This document shows positions 38,833-41,115 of a DNA stretch of 64,000 nt, piece after piece (within the stretch, counting starts at the first letter, position 1; every line of letters starts with the position of its first letter). Made by a program: the position numbers and the translations under genes. The notes below the pieces were generated by a model, which made no database searches, was not told the DNA's origin, and saw only the letters and a list, made by a program, of their open reading frames with translations. Source of the stretch: Promethearchaeota archaeon (GTDB lineage Archaea; Asgardarchaeota; Lokiarchaeia; Sigyniarchaeales; SOKP01); assembly GCA_013375475.1 (NCBI GenBank), contig JABXKD010000005.1:16767-80766 (forward strand), given 5' to 3'.

Positions 38833-41115
38833 ATAGTAAAGGTAAAGAACCCTGAGGAGATCGCGCATCTCATAACTGCGGGTTCATATGAAAAAAAGCG
38901 GCTATTTAGTATTATAGCCCATATAGATCACGGTAAAACAACTGCAAGCGACTATCTGTTAAGAAGAGCAGGATTAATGCGTGAAGAAGATGCCGGACAG
39001 CTCCAAATGACCGATTCAGATTTAGAATAAGACTTACTTTTTCTACTGAAAGAAGAGGAGCAGGCAAGAGGAATTACTATTTTCACGAGTGTAGTTTTAT
39101 TAGCTTTCAATGACCCTAGAAAACCAGATGACGACGAACCATACATCCTTCAAATTAACGATACTCCTGGGCATATTTCTTTTACCGGAGAAGTATCGCG
39201 TGCGCTTAGAGGTAGCGATGGCGCTATAATTCTCGTTGATGCTTTAGAGGGTGTCATGACTCAAACGGAAACCAATATTCGATTATCTGTTGGCGAAGAG
39301 TTTTGTAAACCTGTTCTATTTATAAATAAAGTAGATCGCTTAATTAGCGAGCTTAAGTTAAGCCCAGAAGACACTTTTGCGAAAATTGACAAAATATCGA
39401 GACAAGTTAATGAATTAATCAAAAAGATTAGACCTGAAGGATCAGGTTGGGGCGTCGATTTTGCTAAAAATAGCGTTGCCGTTGGCTCAGCGAAGCATGG
39501 GTGGGGTTTTACATATGAGATTTTATTGGAAAAAGGTTTAAAGCCACAAGATGTATTCGCAAAATATAAAGAAGGCGATATTCAATGGTTGAGAGATAAT
39601 CTTCCACTTGACGAGCCCATGTTAAGGATGGTTGTGGATCATTTACCTAATCCTGTAGAAGCTTCAAAGTATAGAATCCCTCATATATGGGGGGGCGATT
39701 TAAACTCAGAACTCGGACAATCTCTTCAAAAATGCGATCCTAAAGGTCCTCTCTATGGCATGATTACAAAAATATTCTTAGATCCACGAAGAGGGTATCA
39801 AGCTACTCTAATAGGTCGCGTTTTTTCTGGTACATTCGATCACACTGATTCAATTTATTTGATAGGCGGTAGGAGTACAAATCGAGTAAAACGATTAGGT
39901 GTTATGGAAATAACAGATCTTTTAGATATTCCCCGAGTTCCAGCAGGTAATTTATTTGCCTTATACGGGTTTATTTGCCCATCTGGAGAGACATTTATGT
40001 CTGCAAGTGACGTACCAAAAGATAAGGAGGAAGCATACCAATTACCCACCTTTGAAAAAATCCAATACGCCTGTGAACCCGTTGTTTCAAGAAGTATAAA
40101 AGCCCAAGATCCACAGGAGATAGATAAATTGACTACAGTAGTAAACAAGTGGCTTCAAGCAGATCCAACTGCGATGTATCGTTTAGATAAAGAGTCTGGA
40201 GAATTTATATTAAGCGGAATTGATCCGCTTCAAATTGAGATACTTACAAAGCGAATTAATAATCAAGTGGAAATTAATATTGGAGAGCCGATTATAGTAT
40301 ATCGAGAAAAAATAACCAAGAGAAGCAGAGATTATTACACAAAATCAGCTAACACACATAATCGCATTTTGTTATACATTGAACCACTAGACGAGAAAAC
40401 GGAAAAACTAATTGAGTCTGGAAAAATAACAGATCTGATGAATGAAAAGGATAAAGCTAAAATCTTGAGAGAGGAAGCTGATTGGGACGCGAAAGAAGCT
40501 AGACGAATTGTTGATGTGTATCAAGGAAGCTTACTCGTAAACGGTACCTCGGGATTACAACGATTCGATAAAGTTAAATCGTATTTAACGGCCGCTTTTA
40601 GGGATTGGCTTGGAGAATGTATTCTTGCGAAAGAACCAGCCGCAGGATTTAAAGTTGTTTTCACAGATATGACAATTCACGAAGATACAAGGCATACATC
40701 ATATGGTCAAATCGCTGGAATGGCTTTTTCAGCAATGTCACTAGCTATGTTGGACGCTGGACCTCATCTTTTTGAACCCATTCAGAAAATTGACGTGAAA
40801 ACTCCAGAAGGGACTGAGGGACCGGTAAATGCTATTATTAGCAAGCGACGTGGTAAAATTACAAACGTAATTCCCGAAGGAGAGTACGTAAGAGTTCAGG
40901 GTGAAATTCCCGCAGCTGAAACTATTGGTATAGCTGACGATATTCGAGGTTCTACTCAAGGAAGGGCTTTTTTTGGATACGAATTTTCGGGATTTGAAAA
41001 AGTACCAAATAGTTTAGAAGAAGATCTTATCCTCGAAATTCGCAAACGTAAAGGTATGCCAGACCACTTGCCAAATACTTCAAGTTGGGATCGGTTTATT
41101 TACAAAAAGACTTAG
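38833..41115 (+). CDS. Elongation factor 2 family GTPase (possibly the Asgard aEF-2 paralog), two exons (38833-39021 + 39052-41115), about 750 aa after splicing; apparent ATA start
   Basis: Exon 1 ...RLFSIIAHIDHGKTTASDYLL...MTDSD + exon 2 EEEQARGITIFTS...NDTPGH...DALEGVMTQTET...FINKVDR; domain IV HEDTRHTSYGQI; C-terminal RGSTQGRAF, IRKRKG. Confidence 0.92.
39022..39051 (+). other. 30-nt bulge-helix-bulge (tRNA-type) intron in EF-2 mRNA, containing an in-frame TAA
   Basis: TTAGAATAAGACTTACTTTTTCTACTGAAA; central helix UCAG(39016-19)/CUGA(39046-49), bulges AU|U and AA|G, inner helix UAGAA(39023-27)/UUCUA(39041-45). Confidence 0.88.

Follow-up and report, generated by a model that had tools for sequence, protein, structure and literature searches.

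A probable bulge-helix-bulge mini-intron in the aEF-2 gene of a Loki-type Asgard archaeon

[quoted passage not shown] The tRNA-splicing endonuclease EndA cuts canonical BHB substrates between the second and the third base of the bulge. The cbf5 introns (Aeropyrum, Sulfolobus) are patchily distributed, with gain and loss among relatives, and archaeal pre-mRNA splicing is given as confirmed for no gene other than cbf5 (PMC2738675). The window analysed here is a stretch of 64,000 nucleotides (nt) from a Loki-type Asgard genome of the Promethearchaeota (G000:C244:16767-80766, in which G000 is the label of the window's genome), and it contains a canonical gene for archaeal elongation factor 2 (aEF-2) that is interrupted at 39022-39051 by 30 nt with an in-frame stop codon. 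This insert is, with high confidence, an archaeal BHB intron of the aEF-2 pre-mRNA, and aEF-2 would most likely need RNA splicing for its full-length protein to be made. The interrupted gene resembles the cbf5 introns in its proposed mechanism and its patchy distribution. It differs from them in that the hosts here are aEF-2 and the initiation factor gene aIF2-gamma, the phylum is Asgard, the introns are known from sequence, and several sites are used per gene, all of them in GTPase G-domain motifs and all with a stereotyped build of 29-32 nt. Compared with the BHB introns of archaeal tRNA and rRNA, the recognition motif is the same and the enzymes would be the same, whereas the exon half of the motif here consists of codons and excision must restore a reading frame. 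The central helix H and the outer helix would for that reason constrain synonymous sites.

The reading frame from 38836 to 41115 reads AHIDHGKTT, then QMTDSDLE, a stop codon and DLLFLLKEEEQARGITI, with one in-frame TAA at 39028-30, just as the preliminary description of this locus had claimed. Deletion of 39022-39051 gives DSDEEEQARGITI, the family-typical product that had been predicted and that intron-less orthologs encode. These orthologs carry either DSDEEEQARGITI or DSDDEEQERGITI and are exactly 10 codons shorter than the window gene. The ten extra codons (LE-stop-DLLFLLK) follow DSD at a place where the orthologs read QMTDSD(E/D)EEQ(A/E)RGITIF. At the DNA level, precisely these 30 nt are missing from the nearest relative (G011) and from a 682-nt allele (L003). 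The insert length is a multiple of three and yet contains a TAA, and the unspliced peptide of about 65 residues proposed in the preliminary description is right provided that translation begins at 38833. An assembly or sequencing artefact might be suspected as the source of the 30 nt, as the genome comes from a metagenome bin that is fragmented into 288 contigs and has 6.4% contamination. The contigs of three DNA runs contain the stretch, with word shares of 1.00, 0.99 and 0.94, and in run X1 two overlapping contigs span it with zero mismatches. The same insert is also present in 19 separate genomes and in nine named records with at least seven different accession prefixes, which leaves an artefact with a negligible probability.

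The minimum free energy fold of the RNA from 38991 to 39070 has an energy of -17.2 kcal/mol (z = -1.98) that is equalled by 6 of 200 shuffles. All of the helices that had been claimed for this region are present in the fold, namely UCAG/CUGA, 39023-27/39041-45 together with 39029-31/39037-39, and GCUCC/GGAGC. The claimed closing pair U39015-A39053 is absent from it, while all 18 distinct intron-bearing sequences have the same two complementary bases in these columns. The intron is laid out as 1 nt, a 9-position stem, a 5-nt loop, the return strand, the 4-nt strand of helix H and 2 nt. Helix H consists of 4 Watson-Crick base pairs (bp) flanked by 3-nt bulges on opposite strands, the inner helix h' closes the intron side with 8 of its 9 positions paired, and excision at the bulges leaves a product that is collinear with intron-less homologs. 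The cut positions were deduced from the ortholog junction and the textbook BHB rule, and the junctions defined by homology fall between bases 2 and 3 of each bulge. With the boundaries fixed by homology, shuffling the 30 nt 200,000 times produced 5 sequences with four of four central pairs and at least eight of nine inner pairs, and no other register within +/-9 nt reaches this score.

An order-level search of 154 genomes, which used the first 140 residues as the query with the stop read as X, matched the gene in 142 of them. Stops within the match are found in 27 genomes, all of which belong to family f1, and in 0 of the 18 matches in families f2-f4. No ortholog among the 142 matched genomes has a ten-residue insertion with a sense codon in place of the TAA, a pattern that had been named as one that would speak against an intron. 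The loci were fetched and 60 aEF-2 genes were aligned, from which 28 inserts at 5-6 sites were parsed (27 of 30 nt and one of 31 nt; Table 1). A single build is found in all 28, with 1 nt, a 9-position stem strand, a 5-nt loop (6 nt in the 31-nt insert), 9 nt, 4 nt and 2 nt, and the 4-nt strand of each insert is complementary to exon positions -6 to -3. Helix H is fully paired in 27 inserts and pairs at three of four positions in the other, and the stems pair at 7-9 of 9 positions. The stem sequences are unrelated between insertion sites. Two aEF-2 genes, L022 (G015) and L050 (G098), have a mini-intron at the window's site and also a second one in the P-loop region, of 31 and 30 nt.

At the window's site the TAA occupies the identical place in 19 of 19 genomes, whose aEF-2 genes start with ATG, GTG or ATA. 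In the alignment of this site, 96.5% of cells are paired, compared with 28.7-48.2% when the partners are slid. In the inner helix two pairs have changed at both partners, one as GC/AU in 4 sequences and the other as UA/AU in 4, and the covariation score is reached by 0 of 500 shuffles. All 18 distinct intron-bearing sequences use TCA for the Ser that contributes to UCAG, and TCAG is found in 36 of 79 distinct intron-less ones. The distal GCUCC/GGAGC helix has all five pairs in 15 of the 18 versus 1 of the 79; since the sequences share ancestry and the intron may carry its flank along, this exon-intron contrast is suggestive and not a test. The BHB intron first proposed in the preliminary description is supported by the conservation at the same site, the covariation of the inner helix and the inserts of the same build elsewhere.

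A second insert of BHB type is located outside the window in the P-loop of aIF2-gamma (Table 1). The genome has no other match for this gene, which scores 544 bits on NF003077. Among the full-length GTP_EFTU matches in the genome, stops are found only in aEF-2 and aIF2-gamma. The order search for aIF2-gamma gave matches in 141 of 154 genomes, approximately 30 of which are either interrupted by a stop or start just past the P-loop with a shortened open frame. Within 33 aIF2-gamma loci, including that of G000, the insert is present in 27, five are intron-less and one lies at a contig edge. The insert lengths are 29 nt in 22 sequences, 30 nt in four and 32 nt in one. Because a 29-nt insert shifts the frame of an essential single-copy gene, it cannot be a tolerated insertion. 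RNAalifold predicted just three pairs for the aIF2-gamma set because a single-base bulge varies in its position in the stem, and the structure was then supplied by hand. With this structure, 87.1% of cells are paired across the 27 sequences versus 38-51% with partners slid, changes on both sides are seen in 10 of 13 pairs (53 cells), and the score is reached by 0 of 500 shuffles. The exon-intron pair of helix H covaries in this gene, with an exon change from CAT to CAC matched by an intron change from A to G. One genome has an aEF-2 insert that splits the exon sequence GATCATGGAA/AGAC at the very base at which the aIF2-gamma insert splits it. The predicted intron of the window is one of a family of stereotyped mini-introns, 29-32 nt long, in the aEF-2 G domain and the aIF2-gamma P-loop of one archaeal family.

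Short inserts that are bypassed during translation are known from phage T4 gene 60 and from the byps elements of yeast mitochondria. Programmed bypass is the only rival explanation with some support at the window's site. The ribosome would stall at the UAA and the peptidyl-tRNA would hop from GAA 39025-27 to GAA 39052-54, giving a product DSDLE-EEQ with one extra residue. The insert is like the bypass elements in its short length, in its stop within a hairpin, in its position in an essential open reading frame (ORF) and in some matching of the flanking codons. A GAA both precedes the TAA and opens exon 2, the stop sits in a stem-loop, and the two codons are identical in 6 of the 19 inserts at this site and specify the same amino acid in 12. 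In the remaining 7 of 19 the amino acids differ and the matching fails. Inserts of the same build are also present within P-loops (AH/IDH, AHID/HGK, GK and aIF2-gamma), where extra residues would destroy the nucleotide-binding motif. Most of the aIF2-gamma copies are 29 nt long and would shift the frame, and inspection of the P-loop and 29-nt copies found no matching take-off and landing codons. Bypass also provides no role for the BHB geometry seen here, with its covarying 4-bp exon-intron helix and its fixed 3-nt bulges. To our knowledge, translational bypass is not known in archaea. Taken with these points, bypass is given very little credence here.

The window protein contains the full EF-2 domain set in Pfam (GTP_EFTU, EF-G domains II-IV including EFG_III and EFG_IV, and EFG_C), and its score on the aEF-2 model TIGR00490 is 606 bits, below the curated cut-off of 738 bits. 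The G+C content of the window is approximately 30-35%, and close EF-2 relatives in named records are nearly all from metagenome genomes of Promethearchaeota or Promethearchaeia (Loki-type Asgard). The HxDxxH loop of domain IV is kept as IHEDTRHTSYGQ (HEDTRHTS), with a Thr and a Ser following HxDxxH. According to the available part of Narrowe et al. 2018, the canonical aEF-2 of Lokiarchaeota features R702T and G703S/Q, and a paralog, aEF-2p, is without the loop (PMC6143161). The window protein combines HxDxxH, R702T and G703S, as the canonical aEF-2 does in that account. A second full-length EF-2 homolog of the genome, on contig C99, is 34% identical and is without the HxDxxH loop, and the third copy consists of the 682-nt contig only (L003, G000:C109). 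As the sole copy with the loop, the interrupted gene is the only presumed translocase of the genome.

The start position of aEF-2 (38833-35) reads ATA, and ATG is found there in 46 of 51 orthologs that have this column. No in-frame ATG, GTG or TTG follows the upstream TGA. Two further intron-bearing genomes (loci L037 and L042) also have an ATA start, with GTG in one and TTG in one, and a GTGA- or GGTGA-like box lies at the usual distance before the start in all of these genes with non-ATG starts. In orthologs, this Shine-Dalgarno-like GTGA or GGTGA box is positioned approximately 8-10 nt upstream of the aEF-2 start. An upstream ATG at 38823 was considered as the true start, which would involve a tiny second intron or a frameshift; it was rejected because it lies inside the Shine-Dalgarno-like box and because the ATA start recurs in two genomes. 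We read aEF-2 as a functional gene whose start may be an uncommon, non-canonical codon, although a recent loss of function is conceivable from the sequence.

The co-occurrence of an in-frame stop and an ATA start in one gene would be explained if this aEF-2 copy were a pseudogene, with a nonsense insert, a lost ATG and an incidental hairpin. The genome, with an estimated completeness of 100%, has no other canonical aEF-2. Besides the TAA within the insert, there is no stop or frameshift across the 749 codons of the gene, and comparison of 686 codons of exon 2 with those of the nearest ortholog gives a ratio of nonsynonymous to synonymous substitution rates (dN/dS) of 0.053, as for a gene under selection. 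The same insert and TAA are kept in 19 species with ATG, GTG or ATA starts, and the ATA start of the two other genomes stands behind a GGTGA box. An inactivating insertion is accordingly rated as a slim prospect.

Genome searches identified two distinct ORFs of the EndA family, of 200 and 202 amino acids, with PF01974 and PF02778 domains (99 and 70 bits), and one RtcB (561 bits). Inspection of the sequences found a His in the GPG..HSPF stretch of one EndA protein and not in the other, a difference that fits a pair of one catalytic and one structural subunit. The available part of the work of Hirata and colleagues describes Asgard EndA as an (alpha-beta)2 type with an L1 loop tied to a broad substrate range (PMC5829648). 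ARAGORN predicts 44 tRNA genes in the genome and calls introns in 22 of them, some of these calls being doubtful. Asgard genomes are described as rich in tRNA introns in the accessible portions of two sources (bioRxiv 10.64898/2026.10.13.758758; PMC11291895).

From the observed sequence, fold, conservation, covariation, intron-less alleles and enzyme genes, we infer the following course of cleavage and ligation. In the transcript, UCAG of exon 1 would pair with CUGA near the 3' end of the intron, leaving a 3-nt bulge on each strand. The 9-bp intron hairpin would stack inside, and the U-A pair and the distal GCUCC/GGAGC exon-exon helix would lie outside. The two-subunit EndA would cut once per bulge, after 39021 and after 39051, and the RtcB ligase would join the exons. 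The spliced mRNA would then encode MTDSD-EEEQARGITI within a full-length aEF-2, and translation of unspliced mRNA would stop at the UAA after approximately 65 codons. The 30 nt might instead be removed from the RNA by another nuclease, or by self-cleavage and ligation, with the BHB shape being coincidental. What leaves room for this is that cleavage by EndA is a prediction, that the outer helix is weak and that no Rfam family matches anywhere in 38700-39300. Exact EndA-substrate geometry is nevertheless kept at 6-7 sites in two genes, and the EndA and RtcB genes are present in the genome. We know of no self-splicing intron as small as a 30-nt RNA. Removal by such another route is judged very unlikely.

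Several observations weigh against a BHB intron at this locus. The outer side of the motif is weak, with one U-A pair followed by a 10/3-nt internal loop and then the 5-bp GCUCC/GGAGC helix. The single U-A pair beside the bulge makes the motif a relaxed one and not a strict hBHBh'; motifs of this kind are reportedly tolerated by EndA of the broad-specificity (alpha-beta)2 type (PMC5829648). The preliminary description had pointed to compensatory changes in UCAG/CUGA among relatives as a check, and none were found. The helix is invariant in the 18 distinct intron-bearing sequences and so offers no covariation of its own at the window's site. The association of exon and intron states could partly reflect hitch-hiking of a co-converted flank and not selection, and with its ATA start this aEF-2 copy could be impaired.

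The RNA libraries and the genome-wide scan provide further points of this kind. The stretch 38600-39600 was compared at 88% likeness with three metatranscriptome runs and with one DNA run, and no RNA contig of the former covers this organism's own intron. For RNA contig X12 (199 nt, depth 2.4), the match stops at 39021 and exon-2-like sequence continues, giving the junction 39021/39052. With 13 mismatches in 129 aligned bases, this contig comes from a relative, whose DNA may be intron-less. In two X7 contigs the match starts at 39052; both the X12 and the X7 contigs belong to relatives with approximately 88-92% identity. The DNA run also contains intron-less relatives, with loose ends at 39052 and 39055. 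Comparison of 30 loose letters with the known loci gave no exact match; the nearest loci are intron-bearing (2-3 mismatches) and the nearest intron-less locus has 4, a difference too weak to use. The RNA-library contigs neither prove splicing nor speak against it. A genome-wide scan for BHB-like candidates that restore an ORF found 71, compared with 73-79 in offset controls, and thus no excess. Its strict set contained 49, compared with 37-51 in controls with the H strand offset, and a strict scan without the requirement for a stop in the insert is uninformative. Besides the window's intron, the structural scan yielded one convincing new case, that of aIF2-gamma, and the remaining candidates look like noise. 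The cbf5 gene of this genome is uninterrupted (TIGR00425 positions 4-319, without a stop). BHB mini-introns of this class are uncommon, and a scan by itself would not have proved their existence.

Inteins and homing introns prefer the most conserved motifs of essential genes and are patchily distributed. The mini-introns are like these elements in their sites (P-loop and near switch I), their patchiness and their signs of flank co-conversion. They differ in that a 30-nt insert encodes neither a protein nor a ribozyme, and any mobility would therefore rely on host enzymes or ordinary recombination. A tree was built from nt 331-2250 of aEF-2 with all intron-bearing genomes and a convenience sample of intron-less ones; it omits the partial genes L052 and L024, and six rows of unknown state were left uncounted. 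In this tree G000 is sister to G011 (support 96) within a clade of nine, the other eight of which are intron-less. The state at site 189 requires at least eight changes on the tree, a count from a biased sample that speaks of patchiness and not of rate. For a 69-nt tract of exon 1 beside the intron (Table 1), the nearest sequences are intron-bearing alleles (61 of 69 identical in L045, then 60 of 69 and 60 of 69), and L005 from G011 matches at 53 of 69 and ranks 37th of 54. Downstream of the intron, L005 is the nearest sequence, with 131 of 141 and then 1729 of 1920 positions identical. This mosaic, a single observation, is what would be expected if the intron and its 5' flank had been acquired together through recombination with an intron-bearing allele, and the copy in this genome was probably gained recently in that way. 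The L003 fragment is 96% identical (651 of 678) to G099, a genome of another genus that is itself intron-bearing, so that intron presence differs between very close alleles. The L003 contig is probably a contamination of the bin.

Directly upstream of aEF-2 is an ORF of 197 amino acids (38147-38740, forward strand) with one LAGLIDADG motif (PF14528, E 2.8e-6). In G046 (L179:27-1907), an ORF of 626-634 amino acids with two LAGLIDADG motifs occupies the same place, and from this the window ORF looks like a C-terminal remnant. The window genome and G046 share the intron at site 189, and the sequence nearest to the 69 nt before the intron is that of G046. Other loci that extend 1.5 kb upstream contain no such ORF. 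The homing-endonuclease-like gene may be linked to the recombinant exon 1. A weaker LAGLIDADG-like match is located at 43731-43967 (G000:C244:60497-60733) on the reverse strand, with 33% identity over 83 residues in a tblastn comparison with the 38147-38740 ORF.

In HAC1/XBP1 splicing, Ire1 cuts a small mRNA intron in stem-loops and RtcB or Trl1 joins the exons, in what is a regulated stress switch. The proposed splicing of aEF-2 is alike in its small mRNA intron, its tRNA-type ligase and a function that exists only in the spliced form. The nuclease is Ire1 in the one and, by proposal, the tRNA-splicing endonuclease in the other, and regulation by stress is a feature of HAC1/XBP1. A broader interpretation is put forward tentatively, as one that is doubtful at present. 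The BHB mini-introns of approximately 30 nt may be mobile, homing into conserved motifs of translational GTPases, spreading by recombination with co-conversion of the flank and reaching the P-loop of paralogs. Synthesis of the translocase and of the carrier of initiator tRNA would then depend on the tRNA-splicing enzymes, a possible checkpoint that couples translation capacity to tRNA maturation.

Table 1. Coordinates of the predicted intron, its host gene and its structural elements in the window, with the sites of related inserts
Feature	Position	Strand	Remarks
aEF-2 gene, canonical (exon 1, intron, exon 2)	38833..41115	+	stop codon 41113-15
Exon 1	38833..39021	+	63 codons; includes P-loop AHIDHGKTT at 38917-38943
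Putative co-conversion tract of exon 1, beside the intron	38953..39021	+	69 nt
Predicted BHB mini-intron	39022..39051	+	30 nt; absent from intron-less orthologs
In-frame TAA within the intron	39028..39030	+	
Exon 2	39052..41115	+	switch I RGITI at 39067-39081
Distal outer helix, 5' strand GCUCC (exon 1)	39000..39004	+	pairs with 39057-39061
Central helix H, 5' strand UCAG (exon 1)	39016..39019	+	pairs with 39046-39049
5' bulge A-U/U	39020..39022	+	inferred cut 39021/39022
Inner helix h' and 5-nt loop (39032-36)	39023..39045	+	39023-31 with 39037-45; U39028.U39040 mismatch
Central helix H, 3' strand CUGA (intron)	39046..39049	+	
3' bulge A-A/G	39050..39052	+	inferred cut 39051/39052
Distal outer helix, 3' strand GGAGC (exon 2)	39057..39061	+	
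aEF-2 insert in relatives, window's site	after reference nt 189		19 genomes; 30 nt
aEF-2 insert in relatives, six bases upstream of window's site	after reference nt 183		2 genomes; 30 nt
aEF-2 insert in relatives, AH/IDH	after reference nt 90		4 genomes; 30 nt
aEF-2 insert in relatives, AHID/HGK	after reference nt 96		2 genomes; 30 and 31 nt
aEF-2 insert in relatives, P-loop	inside Lys codon of GKTT		1 genome; 30 nt
BHB-type insert in aIF2-gamma P-loop GHVDHG/KTT	G000:C33:22268-22297 (L146:1769-1798)	-	30 nt; TAG; outside window

The aEF-2 gene is adjoined by a Ras/Rab-like small GTPase gene on the reverse strand (41145-41723; PF00071, 142 bits). Two more genes of the window with a GTP_EFTU domain, at 8322-8936 and 30606-31241 on the forward strand, are uninterrupted, with open frames of 430 and 606 amino acids; by size alone they are putatively aEF-1-alpha-like and aIF5B-like. 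In two relatives, the aEF-2 assembly itself is broken. The gene of G118 is divided between two contig ends (L057/L058) that both stop close to the TAA of the site-189 insert, which suggests that assembly may break at the hairpin. In the gene of G130 (L041), scaffolding has left an artefact, a gap of 100 N whose flank is duplicated.

A full-text literature search, with most subscription journals and supplements lying outside its reach, returned no report of BHB introns in Asgard protein-coding genes, and we judge that mini-introns of this type in the aEF-2 and aIF2-gamma genes of one Loki-type Asgard family have gone unreported. What is new is the phylum, the two essential translational GTPases as hosts, the 6-7 clustered sites in the G domain, the uniform build of 29-32 nt and the signs of recent gain. 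Gene callers will split, truncate or label as pseudogenes the aEF-2 and aIF2-gamma genes in these genomes. Both genes are used as phylogenomic markers, and such miscalling would affect annotation, completeness estimates and marker alignments. If the introns are spliced, two essential translation GTPases of a whole Asgard family would be made only after RNA splicing. Splicing of mRNA by EndA would then have a wider reach in the prokaryotic lineage nearest to eukaryotes, and the mini-introns would provide a tractable case of mRNA intron gain, loss and possible mobility. Should the checkpoint also prove true, the closest relatives of eukaryotes could have an archaeal equivalent of HAC1/XBP1-type splicing.

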